Positions 4,320 to 18,190 of a stretch of DNA of 64,000 bases are shown in pieces. The position numbers and the translations under genes were made by a program. Position 1 is the first letter of the stretch. Each line of letters starts with the position of its first letter. The notes below the pieces were generated by a model. That model ran no database searches. It was not told where the DNA came from and saw only the letters and a list, made by a program, of their open reading frames with translations. This DNA comes from Pristiophorus japonicus (taxonomy: Eukaryota): assembly GCF_044704955.1 (NCBI RefSeq), contig NC_091995.1, forward strand, positions 47,430,001-47,494,000. Direction: 5' to 3'.

Positions 4320-4880
4320 GTAAGCCGGAGGGGGAATGACAGTGTGTGCCCGCACAGCGGGCTTGCAGGTCGGGATGTGTCAGTATAACTGCGATCCCAG
4401 TCCCGGCCTGACCCCCCGAGTGACCAGGAGCCCAGCGGCGAGACTCCTGCAGGAACGTGGCTCGGTCGCTTCGAGTTCACACTCCAGCCGGCGGGAAGCT
4501 GCACTTTAAAAGCTTCATTGTACCACTTGGGAACTTGAATACCTTTTAAAGCTTCCGATCAATGAGACAAATCATTAAATATAGAGGGGGAGGGATTGAT
4601 TTTAATCGCAGGGGGAACGGGTGCCAGCGACCCGGGAACCTATGTTGCACCTTCCGATTCGCGTCAGGATGAAGCTTTGAGGCGACCCGTACAGGTTCTG
4701 GTGAAGTTTGATCTCCCAGAGTTTACCCAGCTGTTTCGGACTGAGCCGCTGCATATTTGCAACATTTGCTGCTTTGATCAGATTTCCACCATGTGCAGTT
4801 CCACTCGGGATTGGTGATGCTGTGCGATGGGGTAAAGTGGGCGACAGCGAGTCCCGCCCGTTTCCCATCTTTCTCTCCAT

Positions 4881-5540
4881 TTATGATATAATTGGCATCA
4901 CTGAGACATGGCTCCAGGGTGACCAAGGCTGGGAACTCAACATCCAGGGGTATTCAACATTCAGGAAGGATAGACAGAAAGCAAAAGGCGGTGGGGTAGC
5001 GTTGCTGGTTAAAGAGGAAATTAATGCAATGGTAAGGAAGGACATTAGCTTGGATGATGTGGAATCGGTATGGGTGGAGCTGCGGAATACCAAAGGACTG
5101 AAAACTCCAGTGGGAGTTGTGTACAGACCACCAAACAGTAGTAGTGAGGTTCGGGACAGCATCAAACAAGAAATTGGGGATGTGTGCAATAAAGGTACAG
5201 CAGTTATCATGGGCGACTTTAATCTACATATTGATTGGGCTAACCAAACTGGTAGCAATACGGTGGAGGAGGATTTCCTGGAGTGTATTAGGGATGGTTT
5301 TCTCGACCAATATGTCGAGGAACCAACTAGAGGGCTGGCCATCCTAGACAGGGTGATGTGTTATGAGAAAGGACTAATTAGCAATCTTGTTTTGCGAAGC
5401 CCCTTGGGGAAGAGTGACCATAATATGGTAGAATTCTTTATTAAGATGGAGAGTGACACAGTTAATTCAGAGACTAGGTTCCTGAACTTAAGGAAAGGTA
5501 ACTTCGATGGTGGAGGCGTGAATTGGCTAGTATAGACTCG
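4881..5540 (+). mobile_element. CR1 LINE, 5' part (APE endonuclease), interrupted by the provirus
   Basis: YDIIGITETWL, GGGVALLVKE, GVVYRPP, MGDFN, SDHNMVEF motifs; CR1 sequence resumes at 16051. Confidence 0.92.
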
Positions 5541-6856
5541 TGTAAGGGGTTTTCTCAGGGAGTGTTGTTGTGCCTTGGGTGTCTCTCTCTGGGCTTCTGC
5601 CCTCACAGCTTATGCCTGGCCTGTGAGGTACCCTGAGTGCTGCAAGAGCACCCCTGGAGAGACTGTGCCCACAGCTTATGAAGGGGGTTTTTAGGCTCGT
5701 GCGTCCCCACAGATTATGCCTAGCCTGTGAGGCACCTGTGAGTGTCAAACACTCCTAACCCCTTCTTCCATAGCCTGTGGCATACAGTTGAGCATTTTCG
5801 AGGCGCTCTTAGCTTCCCTTACACGGTTCTGACATAAGACTCACGATCAGGAGATGTAATACAATAGAACTGAGACAAGGTGATTTCAAGAGGAACTTTA
5901 GGCTTCCAATTTATTTGACAAGGTGTATCTCAACAAACAGCAATACACCAACAAAACAATCCCCCTAAATCCCACTAAACGGACACAATGAAAATCTTTA
6001 CACAAGTTTAGCAGTACAATGCCCAACCTCCCACCTTTCCTGGCCTAACTGAGTTGGGAGTTCTGGGTACCAGAGGTTATACTCACTACTGTGCCTTCTG
6101 CAGTCTAGTGGTTTGTTTCTTCTATCTTCGGTGTCTTCGGACACTGGTTTTCCTTCAGTGTCGAGAGTCTTGCTGGTTGTGGTTGTTGGATGACGAGTGC
6201 AGGGAACCACACACACTGCGTCAGAAACCCCTTTTTATAGCCAGATTATCCAATCCGCCTCTCCTGCTGAAGTCGATTCTTCTCATTGGTGGACTTTGTG
6301 ATTTTGAAAAATGCAGCAGTTTTAGATTATTGCGGGTTTTTTTTCCACTGATGTTAACCTACTCAAGGTTTGAGTGGGTGTTGATTGCATTGGTCTCCTG
6401 TAGCCATTGTATAGGCCCTTGGGTTGTTTTGGGTTCTCTGGTTTCTAAGGTCTGCATAATTTTCCTTCAATTCAGTTTTTCTAACCTACTCAAGGTTTGA
6501 GTAGGTGTTAGTTGTGTTGGCCTCCTGTAGCCATTGTGCAGGTCCCTGGTTTGTTTTGGGTTCCCTAGTTTTCTAAAGATCTGCATAATTTCCTTCCATA
6601 GTGTAAACATGGGGAAGACAATAGTCCGATAATGGCTGTGAGTCAGTTCCAGTTTTCGAGCAAGTGCTCTCCCATTGGCTTGAAAGCCCCATATTTCGGG
6701 CTGACTCTGTCTCACCATTGGCCCTCCGGTGTCCTCCCCCGTCCAATCACTGCTCTGCCAAGGTCAAACTGTTATCGATTTCAATTCACAGCACAGACTG
6801 ATCCCACAGCCCTTTTCCTTCTGGGTAAAATGAGGGGGTTTTCGTCCTCCCCTACA
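5541..6856 (-). repeat. 3' LTR
   Basis: Matches 14731-16046 at a constant offset of 9190, about 33 substitutions by manual count; minus-strand AATAAA at 5910-5915. Confidence 0.95.
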
Positions 6857-7235: not shown

Positions 7236-8368
7236 TTAGCAACGGCTCTCCTGTCTGTGTAGTAGCCTGAGGAACTGCTTTCTTTTTCTTTTTCTCCTGA
7301 GCTTACAGCGTGTAACTAGCAGATAAGCTACAATCAGGAGTTGGTCGATTACTAAGGCATACGCCCAAATCCCACCATGCTGGGGGTTTAATCTGGGCAA
7401 TCTCCCCTGCTAGAATTTCAGTTTTCTGCTCCATGGTGTAAAAATGTTTTTGAGACTAATCCACTGCCTGGAGGAGGGCTGTAAGTTTCCTGGTATAACA
7501 GCTCGGTTTCCCAGGAACACCACGTAGGTAGGCGGACTTCTGTCAGATTTAGCACCACTGATGCCACTGCGTAGTGTACCCCCTGATAAAGTAGTTTCTC
7601 GGTAGGGACCAACACTAAACCATTCCCCGGCCCCCTGGTTGTTGTCGGGCACTCGTGTGGGATGGTGGGCTTGGCCGTGGGTGGGGATTTTCTTTCCCGA
7701 ACTACAAGTTCGGCGGCGTTTACTGGTATCTGGGGATTGGGGGTTACACACGCTTCCCCGCTGTGATCCAATACCACCCCATCCCCGACATCCTGCCACC
7801 ACCTGTAGAAAGCAATGGAGAACCCCTCTGAACACACGCGAGTGCATCCCCACATACACAAATAAATTCCTTGGTTGTACGCCCACCATTTCTCCCAGCA
7901 CACCGTTACCCCGCCAGATGACCCCATGATGGTTCGGTAGGTATCATTATCCAGACGTTCCCAGTCCGAGTGTCGGTCTCCCATGTCCCTCTTGAGCTTT
8001 CTGAGCCACCACCACCGTCCCAGAGGTTTGTCCCCTTGGCAAGTTAGGCATACCTTCCTGCCTGCTGTCACTCTCACTCTGGAAGTGGCCACAGTGATCT
8101 CCGGGCAGGGGATGGAGGCCTCTCCGTAGGTAAAGTCCTTATGGTTGGAGTACTTGGTGGAGTTCGGTCCCAATCACCCAGGCCATCTCCCCTCGTGGGA
8201 GTAGGTGACCCGGCCATCTGCCGCCAGAGTCCCTTCTCCTGTGGTCACTGTCGGCGCTCTGCGCCCGGAGCATCCGAAAACCAGGGAGTCCTCGGTGTCC
8301 CCTCGGTGTCCGGTGCAGATCCTTAGCGATACCAGCATCACTGACGTCCAGTAGGGAGGTGTTGATAT
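7236..8368 (-). pseudogene. env: env-like gene with Ig-like N-terminal domain, internally deleted
   Basis: Splice acceptor tgttcttcttgcctttcag at 8369; ORFs 8174-8425 and 7418-8173 are in one frame separated by a TGA; after about 7487 other frames give a heptad segment LTALLQAVD*SQKHFYTMEQKTEILAGEIAQI, PPAWWDLG, a TM-like ALVIDQLLIVAYLLV and basic tail KLRRKRKRKQ. Confidence 0.75.
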
Positions 8369-8749
8369 CTGAAAGGCAAGAAGAACATGGCCTTGCCTTG
8401 AGAGACCTCTCCAGGCTCGGCCCACTTAATATGTTCCAAACACAAAAATGCTGTACCCAACCGTCACTGCCTTACCTAAACACATATGCACACAACACAA
8501 AGTAACAAAACAGGAAGGGAAAATATACACACCGCCACCCGTCCCCGGGTGGCCAGGCTATATCCTGTCACTGTACAGGTGTCGTCGACCACTCGGCTGA
8601 CCATACCCTGGGGACCAGGATGCCCTCTGCTGAGGGGCTCGTATTGTCCCCCTTAATGGGTCTGGTGCTGCCCTCCAAGGCCCTCCCGAGCCCTGGATAA
8701 TCGGTGGGAGACCCTTGCGAGCGCAACAAAGCACCCTCCCTGTTGTCTT

Positions 8750-11700
8750 TCACCTTCTCGGTCTGGGGCGGGGAACTAAGTAAACAGGGGACCACGGCGC
8801 CCTGGGTTGTGGCACTCTGTCACTCCTCCTTACTGTCAGTGCAGAGTCCCACGTTATGGGCTGCAATGCTATCTCCTCCACCTCTTGGGTTAGCCCCAGC
8901 TGATCCACCATGGGAGGTTCAGCTTCCCCTTGGACCTTGCTAATGGTAGAGCCTTTCTCCCTACTTCTGTTCGTGGGCTGGAAACCACTACCCAGTGGTG
9001 GGATAGCCTTACTGGAGCAGTGAACCAGCCCCGGCTTTAGAGCTTCGGGGCCCGCTCCCTCCTCCGGAGCCTCCAAATCCACCAGGGCCTGTTCTTCCCC
9101 CAGTGCCTGATTCCCTTCCCTTGCTCGTTCCCTCTGTTTTTTTACCTCTTTTGGGGTCAAACAATTTACACTGATTACTGTGATACCACTTCACCCGGTG
9201 AGGCAATCGAACCGCATAGACCATAGGGCTAGCCTTGTCGACTATGCTGTATGGTCCCATATACATTGGTTCAAATACCCCGACCCGGGCGAAGCTTCTC
9301 ACCATCACCTGGTCGCCCACCTCCCAATCATGGTGACTGCGGGGTTCCAGCAGCAGCCGATTGGCACGGTGCTGTTTACCCATGTTGTTGGCCGCCTGCC
9401 AGTGAATCTGTTGAAGCTGTTCAAACAGATTCCTGACGAAGCAGTCCCGGTTCACCTCTCGAAGTTGCCCTTCGATGAGAACCGGCGCCAACACATGCAC
9501 TGGGGTTCTCATGATCCGGCCCGTCATCAGCTCATGGGGTGAGTACCCTGCGCTCTTTGACTGACTGGCCCAGATTCCCATGAGGACCAACGGTAAGACC
9601 TCCACCCACTTGTTTGGTGAGTCTCCCGTCTCCTTGCGCAGCCTTTCCTTTAGGATCCGGTTCAGGCGTTCTACGGGGCCTGAGGACTGAGGGTTGTAGG
9701 CGACATGCCATTTGGCTCTTATCCCCAGCACCTTTAGGGTGGCCTGCATCACCTGGCCGGTGAAGTGGCTTCCCCGGTCGGACTCCACGATTTGAGGTAG
9801 ACCCCACCGAGAGAACACCTCCCTCACCAGGATTTTTGCAGTCCCCACCGCGGTAGCTGTTCGGCAAGGGAAGGCTTCCACCCACTTGGAAAACACATCC
9901 ACCAGGACGAGGCAGTATTTATAACCTCCCTGGGCGGCCGGAAGGGGTCGATCTGGATTGACTGCCATGACCCCTCTACCCGCCTGACGTGTCCCATAGA
10001 CACCTTCCTTTTCTGAGAGTCTGGGTTGTTTGCAGCGCAAACCAGTCAGCCCGCACAGAAGTTGCGGACGTCTTCCCGGAGGCCTGGCCACCACCCTGCC
10101 TTTTCTACCCGTTGCCAGGTAGATTCCGGCCCAGGGTGTCCCGCACCTGGACCCTCATGGGTCAGCTGAAGGAATTCCCTCCGGTGTTGTGGCGGCACTA
10201 CCCATTTGTCCCCTTTAAACTTCCCTCACAGCAATATCTACAGCACTGTATGGGCCCTCTGCCTTCTCCCCCTTTTTGATAGCAGCCATGGCAGCCTTCA
10301 GGATCGGATCCTCCATCTGGACTACTTTAAGGTCCGGGGCCGCAGCCGCCCCTACGCTCCCTTGTGTCCCGGGCTTGCTTCTTGCTGCTGCTATCCTGCC
10401 TGTCTCGTATGGGTCCCATGGGCGACCTGTACGAGCACCTTCCCTTGCCAGCAGGTCTGCCTGCTGGTTACCTTCCCCCCGTGGCTCAGTTTTGGAGTGG
10501 GCCTTTACCTTATGGATATATACATCCCCGGTTTCTCCCACTGCAGCCACGATCTTTTCTAGCAGGGGTTTGGTCACAAGGGGCTTCCCATCCGCAGAGG
10601 TGTACCCCCGGCGTGACCAAATCGCCAGATACTCTGTACACGAATTGCAAGTGAACATGCTGTCCGAGCAAATCGTGTGTGGGGTAGGGAATTCCTCGGG
10701 GTGTGTGACCACATACATCACCGCCGAGAGTTCTGCCTACTGGGCGCTCAGGGTGCATGGGAGTTTAAGAGCCAAGGCAATTCCTGCCTTGGGATCCCAA
10801 ACTCTGCAGCCCGTGAGTCTTGTACCCGCGGACACTGAACTGGAGCCATCAACGTCGATTTCGTGGCTTGTGGGGTGTATCCCTGCCCGAAATCCAAAGT
10901 TAATGTCCCATACCCCCTCCACAGAGCATCTATGCGGCTGCCCTGGATAGATTAAATTTGCTGCGAGCCTGGGCTCGCAGAGGCCCTTGACCTTTAAAGT
11001 CATTTTGGAGAGGAGGAGGGTCCAGCGAGTGATTCTAGCACTGCTCACTGTCCCGTCCAACAGCATCTGCGTCGGGGTATGATGGGTGAGGAGTGTAATG
11101 GGGGATATTCCAGTAAAGATCTGAGCTCTCTTTACTGCCCAGTGGGTGGCAAGCAAGTGCCTCTCACAATTGGAGTATCCCTTTTCTACCTCCGTGAGGA
11201 CCCTGGAGGAGTACACCACTGGTCTCAGCTGACCGTTTTGTTCCTGGAGCAACACTGCACTTAAGCTGTCACCACTGGCTGCCACCTCCAGGAAGAATTC
11301 CTCCCCCCCATCAATTGCCCCGAGGGCTGGTGCTACCTGCAGGTCTCTCCTAAGACGGACAAATGCTGCCTCACAGCCCTCGTCCCATTCCCACTCGACC
11401 CCCTTATGTAGGAGTCTGAGCAGAGGGGCGGCAGTGGCTGCATAGTCCTCGATGAAGTCCCTACAGTAGCCAGTGATTCCCAGGAAAGACCTTACCCCTG
11501 ACACATCCCTAGGGACAGGGAGTTCCTGCACTGCCTTTCTTCCAGCCTCATCAATGGCCCTTTCTCCTGCCCTTATCATCAGGCCCAGGAATTTTACCTC
11601 TCCTAGATCTATCTGGGCTTTCTTGGGGTTAACTTTAAAACCCCCTTCCTTCAATAAGACCAGCAGTTCGGCCAGCAGTGGACCGTGTTCCTCACTGCTG

Positions 11701-12797
11701 TCTGTGAACAACAACAGGTCGTCCACATACTGGACCAGCTGGTGTGGGTGGCTGAAGCCTATTAAGCAGTTCGCCATGCATTGGTGAAAGATGCTGGGAC
11801 TATTATGAAAGCCCTGTGGGAGGCAGCTCCATGTATACTGCTGTTCCCGGAAGGTGAAGGCAAACTTGTACTGGTCTTCCCTCCGTACAGGGATAGACCA
11901 GGACCCGTTGGATATGTCCAACACTGTGAACGTGGTTGCGGATGCAGGGATTTCCCCTATCAGATCCGTAACCGCCGCTACTGTGGGAGCACAAGCTGGG
12001 ATGTTTTTATTGAGCACCCTATAATCCACCGTAGCCCTCCAAGAATTGTCCGGTTTCCTAACCGGCCAAAGCGGGGAGTTGACATGGGTGGCTATGGGTC
12101 TCAAAACACCCTGCTCGACAAGCGAGCTCAAAGCTGTCTCCAAGTCTGCTTCTGCCTCTCGGGGAAAGCTATACTACTTTTGCGGGCGGGACATGGGATC
12201 CTCATCTATTCTAACCTCCACTCCTGTGACTCTCCCACAATCGTGTTTATGGGTGGCAAATGCTGCAAGATTTGCTTGCACATAGGCCCGGTACTTGGCC
12301 GGGGTGTTACCGACCAGAACCTCCAGGTCGTAATCCACTTTTGGCTTCATTGTACACAGAGTCCCTTTTCCCTGTTTCTTATCAATAACCATGACTTCTC
12401 CCTCTGCTCCCGTGCCCACTGTACCCCATAGACAGTGATTCCTCAAGTCTACTAGGATCTGGCGAGCGATGATGAAATCAGCCCCCAAGATCCGTTTTCC
12501 CACCTGCTCCCAGTTCATCAGGACGCACTTCCATTGTGTTTGGAGTGCTCCCAAACGAACTGCGAGCGGGACTGAGAAAAACCCAGCCTTCTCATTACCT
12601 GTGAACCGAACTAGTTGATACGGCACCCCGCTTGATAGAGGTGAGGTTGCGGGGTCCTCCGAATGGACTATCGTGCTGGATGCACCAGTGTCCAAAAGGT
12701 AAGTACCCAATACACCCTCAACCTCCATCTTGACCCAGGGTCGTCCCCAGGGGTCGTATTCTAGTGGGCACAGGTAGGCAGGCTGGGTCTGGGCTAG
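8750..12797 (-). pseudogene. pol: pol: protease, RT, tether (degenerate RNase H), RNase H, integrase
   Basis: PR LLDTGAS and ILGADF; RT NSPLWPVRK, LPQGFHNSP, YVDDLL; tether EVAAS...RPVVYSSRVL; RNase H VDGSS, SAQ*AEL, SDS, KVKAHS, GNQQADLLA; IN VDVFSKWVEA, ESDRGSHF, PQSSGPVERLN, GPY; stops at 12174 and 10737, frameshifts near 10215, 9950 and 9140. Confidence 0.92.
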
Positions 12798-14726
12798 TCA
12801 CGGCCTCTGTACTGGCAGGGTTGCTGGTGCTTCCCTGCCTGTTGCTGTGGCTACCTTCCCAGTCCCCTCCAGTGCTGTCCTCACTGCAGCTACAATCTCG
12901 TCAAGGGATGGTGAGGAGCTCACTCCATTTCCCCCACTCTGGGCGGCTCCTAAAGAACTTCTCCCCCCATATCTCTTTACTGGGCTCCTGCAATCCCTTT
13001 TAAAATGCCCAGCTTTCCCGCACCCGTAGCACACTCCCTCCTTATCAGACGAGTGGCCACCCTCCTGGTGCCATTCCCTTTTGGGAATCGAGTTGGGATT
13101 TACTGCATTTACCCGACCTTTGGAGGTTTTCTCCTCCTCCCCTCCTCCATTCCATTGGACCAGTGCCAGTTGCCTGACCACTGCTTCCTCGGTGAGGTTG
13201 GGGTCCCGGGAATTGAACCACAGTTCTGCCCTGGCCTTGAGCCGGGGCAAGCAGTTTGTCACTAGCATCCTCAGCCAGCGGCCAGTCTGTACCGCGGAAA
13301 GATTCGCCCGGTCGAGGAGCTCCCCACAGGCTGCGTGGTATACCACCCACAACCTGTCCGCAAACGTCTGCGGGGTTTCCCCTGCGAGCTGCCTTGTCCT
13401 TTCGACCCGTTCGAAAGGACTGCCGTCATCGAAGCCCATAGCCTCAAGGACGGCCCTCTGGACCTCAGTAAATGTACGCTATCCCCTCCGGCATTCTGCC
13501 GGTAGGGCCTGGTACAATTTGCTGTCCAGAGAGAAGAGCAGCAGCTTGGCTGTCTCTTCCTCGTCGCACCCATTAATTTCTCCTGCCTACACCACCTCCA
13601 TGAAGTGGATGGACGGGTCCCCGCTGCGAGTGAGTTTGGCCAAATGGGCCACCATGGCCCTGAATGATTGAACTCCATGGGGAATAATAAAGTCGCTCTC
13701 CAGCGCTCCCCGACCTTGGCCACCTCCCTGTGGAGGACCGTACTTGCGCTGCCTGACTGGGCACATCCGCCCTGGTCCAGGATCTTTCTGCGCTGGTCCC
13801 TCTACCTCCGGCTGTCCCACCATACCCGGTGCAGCAGACAGTGCCTGGTCGCCTGATCCAGCCCTTAACTGACCCTCTGCTGGAGCCTCACATCCCTGCT
13901 GCCGAGCGGGACACATTGGTCCTGCCCCCAGCCCTGGGTATGCTACGACCTGCGTGCCCCGCTCCTCCTGGTACCCCACCGGACAAACCACCGGTGCCTC
14001 AGGAGGTGGTCGGGCGTCTCTTGTCTTTGGATTCTCCTCTACCCCCCAATACTCTCCTTTGTCCCCTGTGGACCCTCTGGGTCCTATCAGGGTGACCATC
14101 CCCTTTGCCTGGGATAGAGCGTGGGTGAGAGTTTTAATCCTCTCCTGGCAGGGACCGTGATCTGCAAACTCACTGCTACTGGCCACTTTGTAGGCTGCCT
14201 GCACATCTTTTAATTTATTCTCTAGTTACCAAATCTTCTGGGTGTACCGAGAGTTCTGTTCCCGGAGGGACCCCTCACTACCCTTGGCCTCAGTAACCTG
14301 ACACTGAAGATAGTCCCGGCAATTTCGGAAGGTCTCCTCCAACTGCCGGTTCCTTTGCTACTCCTCAGCTAATTCGGCCAGCAGGTTGTCCCCAACCGCA
14401 GCCCGGATAGCAGAGAGCTCCTCTGATTTCTGAAGACTCTGTTCCAAGTCCTTCACCCGCTGGTCGAGCATTCGGACTTGGCGGGTGAGGCAGATAAGCC
14501 AGATAGCCTTTTCCACCCTGTGGTTGTGGTCCTTCCCTGCTGTCCACTGAGCAGCAGCATCCACTGGGCGCTCTGCCCGAGTGAGGGCTTGCACCCAAGG
14601 TTTGGTGAGGTTCACCTTGCCAAAAATGTATGAGGAAATTCTCTCCTCCATTTTAGTTTCCTCTCTTATCACCTCATCTGTTATATTAACATCTCCTGTT
14701 TGCTTATGTCCTGCCGCGGTCACCAT
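12798..14726 (-). pseudogene. gag: gag: N-terminal coiled coil, capsid-like region, CCHC zinc knuckle
   Basis: Same-frame ORFs 14358-14726, 13587-14204 and 12798-13439 broken by stops; CYGCGKAGHFKRDC; QLAGETPQTFADRL (MHR-like); heptad-rich QVRMLDQRVKDLEQSLQKSEEL. Confidence 0.88.
14708..14725 (-). promoter_or_regulatory. Primer binding site, tRNA-Arg
   Basis: TGGTGACCGCGGCAGGAC is complementary to the vertebrate tRNA-Arg 3' end GUCCUGCCGCGGUCGCCA (recalled sequence) with one G:U pair. Confidence 0.8.
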
Positions 14727-14730
14727 GTTC

Positions 14731-16046
14731 TGTAAGGGGTTTTCTCAGGGAGTGTTGTTGTGCCTTGGGTGTCTCTCTCTGGGCTTCTGCCCTCACAGCT
14801 TATGCCTGGCCTGTGAGGTACCCTGAGTGCTGCAAGAGCACCCGTGGAGAGACTGTGTCCACAGCTTATGAAGGGGGTTTTGAGACTCGTGCATCCCCAC
14901 AGCTTATGCCTAGCCTGTGAGGCACCTGTGAGGGTCAAACACTCCTAACCTCTTCTTCCCTAGCCTGTGACACACAGTTGAGCATTTTCAAGGCGCTCCT
15001 AGCTTCCCTTACACGGTTCTGACATAAGACTCACGATCAGGAGATGTAATACAATAGAACTGAGACAAGGTGATTCCAAGAGGAACTTTAGGCTTCCAAT
15101 TTATTTGACAAGGTGTATCTCAACAAACAGCAATACACCAACAAAACAATCCCCCTAAATCCCACTAAACGGACACAACGAAAATCTTTACACAAGTTTA
15201 GCAGTACAATGCCCAACCTCCCACCTTTCCTGGCCTCACTGAGTTGGGAGTTCTGGGTACCAGAGGTTATACTCACTACTGTGCCTTCTGCAGTCTAGTG
15301 GTTTGTTTCTTCTATCTTCGGTGTCTTCGGACACTGGTTTTCCTTCAGTGTCGAGAGTCTTGCTGGTTGTGGTTGTTGGATGACGAGTGCAGGGAACCAC
15401 ACACACTGCGTCAGAAACCCCTTTTTATAGCCAGATTATCCAGTCCGCCTCTCCTGCTGAAGTCGATTCTTCTCATTGGTGGTCTTTGTGATTTTGAAAA
15501 ATGCAGCAGTTTTAGATTATTGCAGGGTTTTTTTCCACTGATGTTAACCTACTCAAGGTTTGAGTGGGTGTTGATTGCATTGGCCTCCTGTAGCCATTGT
15601 ATAGGCCCTTGGGTTGTTTTGGGTTCTCTGGTTTCTAAGGTCTGCTTAATTTTCCTTCAATTCAGTTTTTCTAACCTACTCAAGGTTTGAGTAGGTGTTA
15701 GTTGGGTTGGCCTCCTGTAGCCATTGTGTAGTTCCTTGGTTTGTTTTGGGTTCCCTAGTTTTCTGAAGATCTGCATAATTTCCTTCCATAGTGTAAGCAT
15801 GGGGAAGACAATAGTCCGATAATGGCTGTGAGTCAGTCCCAGTTTTCGAGCAAGTGCTCTCCCATAGGCTTGAAAGCCCCATATTTCGGGCTGACTCTGT
15901 CTCACCATTGGCCCTCCGGTGTCCTCCCCCGTCCAATCACTGCTCTGCCAAGGTCAAACTGTTATCGGTTTCAATTCACAGCACAGACTGATCCCACAGC
16001 TCTTTTCCTTCTGGGTAAAATGAGGGGGTTTTTGTCCTCCCCTACA
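14731..16046 (-). repeat. 5' LTR
   Basis: Direct repeat of 5541-6856; minus-strand TATAAAAA at 15422-15429, CCAAT near 15475-15479, AATAAA at 15100-15105. Confidence 0.95.
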
Positions 16047-16050
16047 CTCG

Positions 16051-18190
16051 CAAATGATACTTAAAGGGTTGACTGCAGATAGGCAATGGCAAACGTTTAA
16101 AGATAGCATGGATGAACTTCAACAATTGTACATTGGAATAAAAATAAAACGAGGAAGGTGGCTGAACCGTGGGTAACATGGGAAATTAAGGATAGTGTTA
16201 AATCCAAGGAAGAGGCATATAAATTGGCCAGAAAAAGCAGCAAACCTGAGGACTGGGATAAATTTAGAATTCAGCAGATGAGGACAAAGGGTTTAATTAG
16301 AAGGGGGGAAGTAAAGTATGAGCGGAAGCTTGCTGGGAACATAAAAATTGACTGCAAAAGCTTCTAAAGATATGTGAAGAGAAAAAGATTTGTGAAGTCT
16401 TTGCAGTCAGATTCAGGTGAATTTATAATGGGGCACAAAGAAATGGCAGCCCAGTTGAACAAATACTTTAGTTCTGTCTTCACGAAGGAAGACACAAATA
16501 ACCTTCCAGAAATACTAGGGGACTGAGGATCTAGTGATAAGGAGGAACTGAAGGAAATCCTTATTAGGTGGGAAATTATGTTAGGGAAATTGATGGGATT
16601 GGAAGTGGATAAATCACCGGGGCCTGATAGTCTGCATCCCTGAGTACTTAGGGGAGTGGCCTTAGAAATAGTGGATGCGTTAGTGATCATTTTCCAACAG
16701 TCTATCGACTCGGGATCAGTTCCTATGGACTGGAGGGTAGCTAATGTAACACCGCTTTTTAAAAAAGGAGGGAGAGAGAAAACCGGTAAGTATAGACTGG
16801 TTAGCCTGCCATCAGCAATGGGGAAAATGTTGGAATCAATTATTAAAGATGAAATAGCAGCGCATTTGGAAAGCAGTGATAGAATCGGTCCAAGTCAGCA
16901 TGGATTTATGAAAGTGAAATCATGCTTGACAAACCTTCTAGAATTTTTTGAGGATATCACTATTAGAGTGGACAAGGGAGAACCAGTGGATGTGATGTAT
17001 TTGGACTTTTAAAAGGCTTTTGACAAGGTCCCACACAAGAGATTGGTGTGCAAAATTAAAGCACCTGGTATTGGGGGTAATGTTTTGACGTGCATAAAGA
17101 ACTGGTTGGCAGACACGAAGCAGAGAGTCGGGATAAACGGGTCCTTTTCAGAATGGCAGGCAGTGACTAGTGGGGTACCGCAGGGCTCAGTGCTGGGACC
17201 CCAGCTCTTTACAATATACATCAATGATTAAGATGAAGGAATTGAGTGTAATATGTCCAAGTTTGCAGGTGACACTAAGCTGGGTGGCGGTATAAGCTGT
17301 GAGGAGGACACTAAGAGGCGGCACGATGACTTGGACAGGTTAGGTGAGTGGGAAAATGCATGGCAGATGCAGTATAATGTGGATAAATGTGAGATTATCC
17401 ACTTTGGTGGCAAAAACACGAAGGCAGAATATTATCAGAATGGCGGCAGATTAGGAAAAGGGGAGGTGCAACGAGACCTGGGTGTCATGGTACATCAGTC
17501 ATTGAAAGTTGGCATGCAGGTACAGCAGGCGGTGAAGAAGGCAAATGGTATGTTGGCCTTCATAGCTAGGGGATTTGAGTATAGGAGCAGGGAGGTCTTA
17601 CTGCAGTTGTATAGGGACTTAGTAAGGCCTCACCTGGAATATTGTGTTCAGTTCTGATCTCCTAATCTGAGGAAGGGCGTTCTTGCTATTGAGGGAGTGC
17701 AGCGAAGGTTCACCAGACTGATCGATTCCTGGGATGGCAGCACTGACATATGAGGAGAGAATGTATCGACTGGGCCTGTATTCACTGGTGTTTAGAAGGA
17801 TGAGAGGGGATCGAATAGAACCATATAAAATTCTGACGGGATTAGACAGGTTAGATGCAGGAAGAATGTTCCCGATGTTGGGGAAGTCCAAAACCAGTGG
17901 ACACAGTCTAAGGATATGGAGTAAGCCATTTAGGACTGAGATGAGGAGAAACTTCTTCACTCAGAGAGTTGTTAACCTGTGGAATTCCTTACCGCAGAGG
18001 TTGTTGATGCCAGTTTATTGAATATATTCAAGAGGGAGTTACACATGGCCCTTACGCTCGGAGGATCAGGGCTATGGAGAAAAAGCAGGAAAGGGGTACT
18101 GAGGTAAATGATCAGCCATGATCTTATTGAATGGTGGTGCAGGCTCTAATGGCCGAATGGCCCACTCCTGCACCCATTTTCTATGTTTCT
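16051..18190 (+). mobile_element. CR1 LINE, 3' part (RT and tail), continuation of 4881-5540
   Basis: Resumes at caaatgatactt after the TSD; [27 protein letters not shown]; tail ttttctatgtttct. Confidence 0.92.

Follow-up and report, generated by a model that had tools for sequence, protein, structure and literature searches.

How does a retrovirus-like element make Pol when its gag gene ends in a stop codon and pol continues in the same reading frame? This question is raised by a provirus of Pristiophorus japonicus (contig NC_091995.1) lying in a stretch of 64,000 nucleotides, called here the window, whose numbering is used throughout. The initial annotation proposed that a UGA-CUAG signal is read through at this junction. 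Published sources are cited by PMC number.

Organization of the provirus

The element is a decayed LTR provirus of 10,506 nt on the minus strand, bounded by LTRs at 14731-16046 and 5541-6856. The two LTRs are 97.5% identical (33 differences) and the provirus is flanked by a target duplication of 4 bp. Its features, in the order in which they are transcribed, are the following:

14731..16046, minus strand: 5' LTR, 1316 bp, with TG...CA ends
12801..14726, minus strand: gag, with a coiled-coil-like N-terminus, a capsid region and one CCHC knuckle; 4 stops in this copy
12990..13031, minus strand: CCHC zinc knuckle (Pfam PF00098, above cutoff)
12798..12800, minus strand: gag TGA stop, candidate readthrough codon (from the sequence; no difference listed in four runs)
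12794..12797, minus strand: CTAG 3' context, type II readthrough motif (from the sequence; motif function from PMC4132726)
12729..12797, minus strand: protease N-terminal leader, 23 codons, upstream of the first ATG (12728)
12732..12789, minus strand: possible 7-bp helix (12789-12783 with 12738-12732), not supported
12684..12692, minus strand: protease catalytic DTG, with the Asp 35 codons past the TGA
10740..12173, minus strand: reverse transcriptase (RT; YVDD) and tether RNase H (PF00078, PF17917, PF17919)
10218..10736, minus strand: second RNase H, retroviral type, C-terminal part (PF00075, E 2e-14)
9009..10154, minus strand: integrase core and GPY-type C-terminus (PF00665; 76% to P0001, the nearest Pol)
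7240..8600, minus strand: broken ORF region in the env position, limits approximate, with an Ig-like segment, a hydrophobic stretch and a basic tail
5541..6856, minus strand: 3' LTR, from comparison of the LTR pair

This copy of the provirus is dead. The several decay stops already noticed in the initial annotation number eight in the gag-pol frame in addition to the junction TGA (14360, 14228, 13589, 13481, 12176, 10739, 10217 and 10157), and the zinc-binding part of the integrase is damaged. One of these, TAA-CTAG at 14228-14222 (minus strand), lies inside gag and is a second stop followed by CTAG; it is presumably a product of decay. In the env position, the Ig-like segment matches PF13927 with an E value of 0.003, which is below cutoff, and its Atlas Ig matches (0.90-0.91) are of low recognition. 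The two ORF pieces scanned from this broken region matched no Env family, including PF00523. Capture of an Ig-domain host gene has been described for a crocodilian ERV (PMC4299795).

Several other structures were observed. Each LTR includes a tandem duplication (15545-15789 and 6355-6599) of about 120-127 bp, 85% alike. A possible primer-binding site with a TGG start (14725-14709, minus strand) lies 5 nt past the 5' LTR and overlaps the first ATG of the gag frame. The provirus is inserted into a putative LINE, with endonuclease-like coding sequence on one side and RT-like sequence on the other (4705-5535; 16050-18000).

The gag-pol junction

Re-reading of the minus strand gave the junction exactly as first annotated: CCG TGA CTA GCC, with the TGA at 12800-12798. 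The CCHC knuckle of Gag is encoded in the frame upstream of this stop, and protease, RT, tether, RNase H and integrase are encoded downstream of it; the claim that gag and pol share one frame across the TGA was thus correct. From 13200 to 12600 the junction frame includes no other stop, against 12 and 5 in the two alternative frames. Frameshifting was considered and rejected. Three slippery-like heptamers occur upstream but reach no useful frame and, since the gag and pol frames are identical, no frameshift is needed.

The heptamer TGACTAG occurs only once in the 10,506-nt provirus, at the junction, and eight times in the 64-kb window (both strands). CTAG at a codon start is found in 6 of 1262 pol codons. 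A UGA followed by CUA(G) corresponds to the type II readthrough signal, which is defined as UGA-CUA/CGG (PMC13517186). It does not correspond to the type III signal of MLV (UAG-G, a purine-rich 8-nt spacer and a pseudoknot): the stop is UGA-C and the downstream fold is not above that of shuffled sequences.

The position of the stop, between knuckle and DTG and 35 codons before the catalytic Asp, was compared with that in a reference set. Of 96 loci fetched, 43 (many of them near-duplicate mouse-type ERVs) have a knuckle in one frame with a stop that precedes the Asp by 20-60 codons. The distance in these is 26-40 codons (n=43). Their stop contexts, which reflect the same near-duplicates, are TAG-G in 40/43 and TGA in 3/43, with no example of TGACTAG (0/43).

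Expression of Pol

The best explanation for this arrangement is probably programmed readthrough of the UGA to give a Gag-Pol protein. The initial annotation had proposed this from the junction alone; the presence of the stop in other copies, its position and the peptide that flanks it now add support. The TGA would be the inherited end of gag in a multi-copy family of retrovirus-like LTR elements. In the active ancestor, most ribosomes would terminate there, giving Gag, and a minority, favored by the CUAG, would insert an amino acid at the UGA and continue, giving Gag-Pro-Pol. The fraction that reads through would set the Gag:Pol ratio. The short sequence context by itself is probably the signal, and a pseudoknot is probably not needed. 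The single frame, the position of the stop, the motif and the presence of the stop in other copies are read directly from the DNA, and from the sequence we infer the readthrough, its rate and the lack of a structural stimulator.

That UGA-CUAG is a strong readthrough context, as had been stated, agrees with values of 7-31% in four human genes, where 12 downstream nucleotides are enough and where the context is conserved across vertebrates (PMC4132726). UGA-CUA alone gives 1.5% (PMC4132726). As a caution, a reporter that carried just the gag-UGA-pol junction of Tca2 gave no directed readthrough (PMC2194720).

It is also conceivable, if rather unlikely, that readthrough is real but is driven mainly by RNA structure after the stop, a stem-loop or pseudoknot of the kind used by MLV or the alphaviruses. 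A 7-bp helix does begin 8 nt after the stop, which is the MLV spacing (PMC13517186), and has a probability of 0.67 in a 70-nt window. However, this probability falls to 0 in windows of 100-200 nt, and a helix of equal length is found at 96 of 1840 codon positions. The initial annotation had suggested folding the downstream 100 nt. In none of the five windows downstream of the TGA does the sequence fold better than its shuffles (z -0.44 to +0.56, in a model that excludes pseudoknots and long-range pairs), whereas of seven controls treated in this way the three of gamma type reach a z of about -2 and the other four do not. A downstream structural stimulator is neither supported nor opposed by this fold test.

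An arrangement in which the gag stop is tight and Pol is made separately, starting at the ATG at 12728 by reinitiation or from an internal promoter, is improbable. This ATG has a favorable initiation context (A at -3 and G at +4), an equivalent Met exists in P0001 (80% identical), and a minor promoter has been described at the Tca2 junction (PMC2194720). Such a Pol, however, would lack the first protease strand. The Pfam protease match (PF00077) begins at residue 18 after the stop and the first Met is residue 24, confirming the earlier claim that the N-terminal strand of the protease lies upstream of this Met. Moreover, the Met is not conserved in the frog relatives, separate initiation leaves the leaky context unexplained, and packaging of Pol normally requires its fusion to Gag.

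Whether the leader is coding was also considered. Its residues 7-23 align with the protease start of L001, the best of 16 viral matches. This 10,688-bp record we take to be snakehead retrovirus (SnRV), from its length and its UAGGGC junction. We classified 38 listed differences, leaving out two at stops. Both of those listed in the leader are synonymous. For differences that vary among copies, the ratio of silent to changed is 5:1 in leader plus protease and 2:6 in gag, although these numbers are small.

Occurrence of the stop in related contigs

Contigs of four runs, three from organism A and one from organism B and together representing three studies, were aligned to 12150-13620. One of the runs, X1, may be the window's own sample. 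Two decay stops, 13481 and 13589, served as controls; at both, essentially the whole depth of every run differs from the window. In contrast, no difference was found at 12794-12800 among the 40 of 74 difference rows listed for the four runs, which do include the neighboring differences at 12777 and 12846. A third control stop, 12176, which is 27 nt inside the edge of the aligned stretch, is also absent from the listed rows. The junction is bridged by three dominant contigs (X5 record 9, X6 record 24 and X7 record 25), which carry 2, 2 and 3 differences, respectively, unplaced and counted by hand.

The initial annotation would have been contradicted by copies with a sense codon (CGA or TGG) at this position. 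None was found in the contigs of the four runs among the 40 of 74 rows listed; a minority sense variant could lie among the remaining 34. By a hand tally for run X5, the listed rows include all eight changes of the CGA-codon type, none of them at 12800, and a TGG codon is excluded by a ranking argument alone. In addition, the alignments of two contigs with about 81% identity (16 differences over 86 nt) cover 12715-12800 and end exactly at the TGA; similarity therefore spans the leader up to the stop and is gone in the gag tail.

The TGA thus looks like the inherited end of gag and not a product of decay, as judged from close copies and the rows listed: unlike the junction, where the listed rows show no difference, 13481 and 13589 are stops in this copy only. 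It is very improbable that the TGA instead arose by decay in this copy only (through CpG deamination, for example), in a family whose gag and pol form a single open frame, with the CTAG there by chance. Decay has certainly occurred, as the eight other stops in the same frame attest, and the CpG observed/expected ratio is 0.49. Fused gag-pol forms also exist elsewhere, since the annotation of seven lokiretrovirus consensus sequences gives gag and pol as one ORF (PMC7947760). Against this, in addition to the behavior of the control stops and the tally for X5, the Gag relative P0197 (43% identical over 223 aa; uninterrupted over 619 aa) ends within one residue of the TGA position, although it comes from a 2078-nt contig whose edge could be the cause. 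Furthermore, a Gag knuckle is present in none of 18 hand-picked Pol relatives (0/18), whose first Met lies at differing distances from the catalytic Asp.

Searches for close relatives with DNA were negative: a single-RT search of viral contigs gave none, a profile search of the same contigs gave reference retroviruses only (30-36%), and metagenome contigs gave 80 loci at 25-38%, none of them close. In runs X5-X7, the second organism, B, has copies about 97% alike, and several more divergent subfamilies align over the protease only.

Junctions of lokiretroviruses

A comparable junction can be read from the consensus sequences in the supplement of PMC7947760. Among those listed with a separate gag (n=7), six end in TGA-CTA, as judged by eye: Ofa, Pyo and Sau have CTAG, and Bsp, Dcl and Lro have CTAA. 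The seventh, Tfu, ends in TAA. In an eighth element, Cne, TGA-CTAG and Pol share a frame, again as judged by eye. This gives TGA-CTA in at least 7 of the 24 consensus sequences (4 CTAG and 3 CTAA); the seven annotated as one gag-pol ORF are others. The main text of PMC7947760, in its accessible form, includes no match for readthrough or stop codon. Without recourse to the window, they show that retrovirus-like elements of vertebrates keep TGA-CTA between gag and pol (PMC7947760).

The lokiretrovirus junctions also bear on the idea that Pol comes from a spliced mRNA in the style of foamy viruses, with CTAG providing the acceptor AG, which is suggested by that AG and by a distant similarity of the RT to foamy RTs but is scarcely credible given that pyrimidines make up only 6 of the 17 upstream bases (0.35), that foamy pol is in another frame with its own start (PMC8278194), that Gag here has a CCHC knuckle and that three of the seven lokiretrovirus junctions are TGA-CTAA, with no AG.

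Classification of the element

The nearest Pols are P0001 (80%) and proteins of frogs and the coelacanth (40-50%). Quick trees, which have no bootstrap and include no labeled ERV-L, foamy or lokiretrovirus rows, place the element on the retroviral side, among the frog and coelacanth Pols and outside the clade of gamma- and epsilonretroviruses plus L001. It has the LTRs and the PR-RT-tether-RNase H-IN order of retroviruses, and its RT groups with theirs in these quick trees. By these trees it is not a gamma/epsilon (class I) member: the RT falls outside that clade, whose support is 95-99%. A structure model of the RT (pLDDT 79) retrieved generic RT matches only in a fold search.

The 4-bp target duplication, the knuckle and the GPY motif are class I-like (PMC4299795). 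Because of these three characters, a typical member of ERV3/ERV4 (5-bp duplication, no zinc finger and no GPF/Y; Table 1 of PMC4299795) is excluded. As far as sequence characters go, they would fit the unclassified SnRV/Ovex1-related ERVs (PMC4299795; PMC6001957). SnRV, through L001, is the best viral match, yet it does not form one clade with the element in the quick tree. SnRV-like ERVs are carried by the elephant shark (PMC4422223). Membership of the lokiretroviruses was considered and then dropped after a comparison by eye, in which their Pols start differently from that of the element.

A related protease fragment occurs inside the sawshark gene model P0047. The frog and coelacanth proteins P0002-P0008, P0011 and P0013, annotated as 'NYNRIN-like' or 'Gypsy integrase-like', are full Pols of the same unclassified retrovirus-like group as the element, and in most of them the annotated start is an internal Met.

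Novelty and significance

In-frame gag stops are a textbook retroviral strategy. The initial annotation contrasted the UGA with the UAG of MLV-type viruses. Only part of this contrast holds: since UGA at gag-pol has already been reported in aquatic retroviruses (PMC13517186, PMC8278194), it is the CUAG context alone that is unusual. A 2026 review treats retroviral readthrough as being of the UAG type and experimentally verified only in gammaretroviruses (PMC13517186). A literature search, which excluded Repbase and most subscription papers, found no report of UGA-CUAG at a retroviral gag-pol junction. What seems to be new, then, is that a retrovirus-like element has the type II context, UGA-CUAG; the class of mechanism is already known.

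We tentatively raise the possibility, itself somewhat doubtful, that UGA-CUA(G) is a recurrent and unremarked basal gag-pol signal, with context-only readthrough arising early and shared with the lokiretroviruses rather than acquired by convergence on the easiest leaky context. If this were true, UGA-CUA(G) would be used by the unclassified cartilaginous-fish ERV family of this element and by much of the lokiretroviruses, which are the sister group of retroviruses. Context-only UGA readthrough could then predate the gammaretroviral UAG-pseudoknot arrangement, which would be a later refinement. Together with those of the lokiretroviruses, the junction bears on the evolution of Gag-Pol expression. 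It carries the best-studied vertebrate readthrough context and is thus a directly testable case. A readthrough junction would also account for the arbitrary internal Mets at which the Pol annotations of this lineage begin.

Comparison with known systems

SnRV and SnRV-related ERVs (clade Huo, PMC6001957) resemble the element in their in-frame stop after a CCHC Gag, their protease leader and their YVDD RT. They differ in that the SnRV stop is UAG-GGC and its RT is only 33% identical to that of the element. Gamma- and epsilonretroviruses (for example, MoMLV and WDSV) also have a single in-frame stop between the knuckle and the protease DTG, but MLV uses UAG-G with a pseudoknot where the element has UGA-C.

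A UGA at gag-pol is found in SSSV, ZFERV, RMEV and XtERV-S, all retroviruses of aquatic hosts (PMC13517186; PMC8278194); that of XtERV-S is an in-frame TGA (PMC8278194). The contexts are nevertheless different: UGAAGA in SSSV, UGACGA in ZFERV and UGAAGU in the frog ERV (PMC13517186, section 4.1.2). Lokiretroviruses share with the element the dual RNase H, a coiled-coil-type Gag N-terminus and TGA-CTA junctions, but have a paramyxovirus-like Env, which was not seen in the two ORF pieces scanned here (PMC7947760). They were found in 0/6 of the cartilaginous fish genomes of that study (PMC7947760).

The same UGA-CUA(G) signal is used outside retroelements, at alphavirus nsP3/nsP4 and in human OPRL1, OPRK1, AQP4 and MAPK10; the alphaviruses add an extended stem-loop. 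Finally, the fission-yeast Ty3/Gypsy elements Tj1, Tcry1 and Tosmo1-3 are fungal chromoviruses of an unrelated lineage, with no second RNase H, but they have the same in-frame arrangement, gag-TGA-CT(A/G)-pol, and in Tj1 transposition needs the gag stop (PMC10085805).
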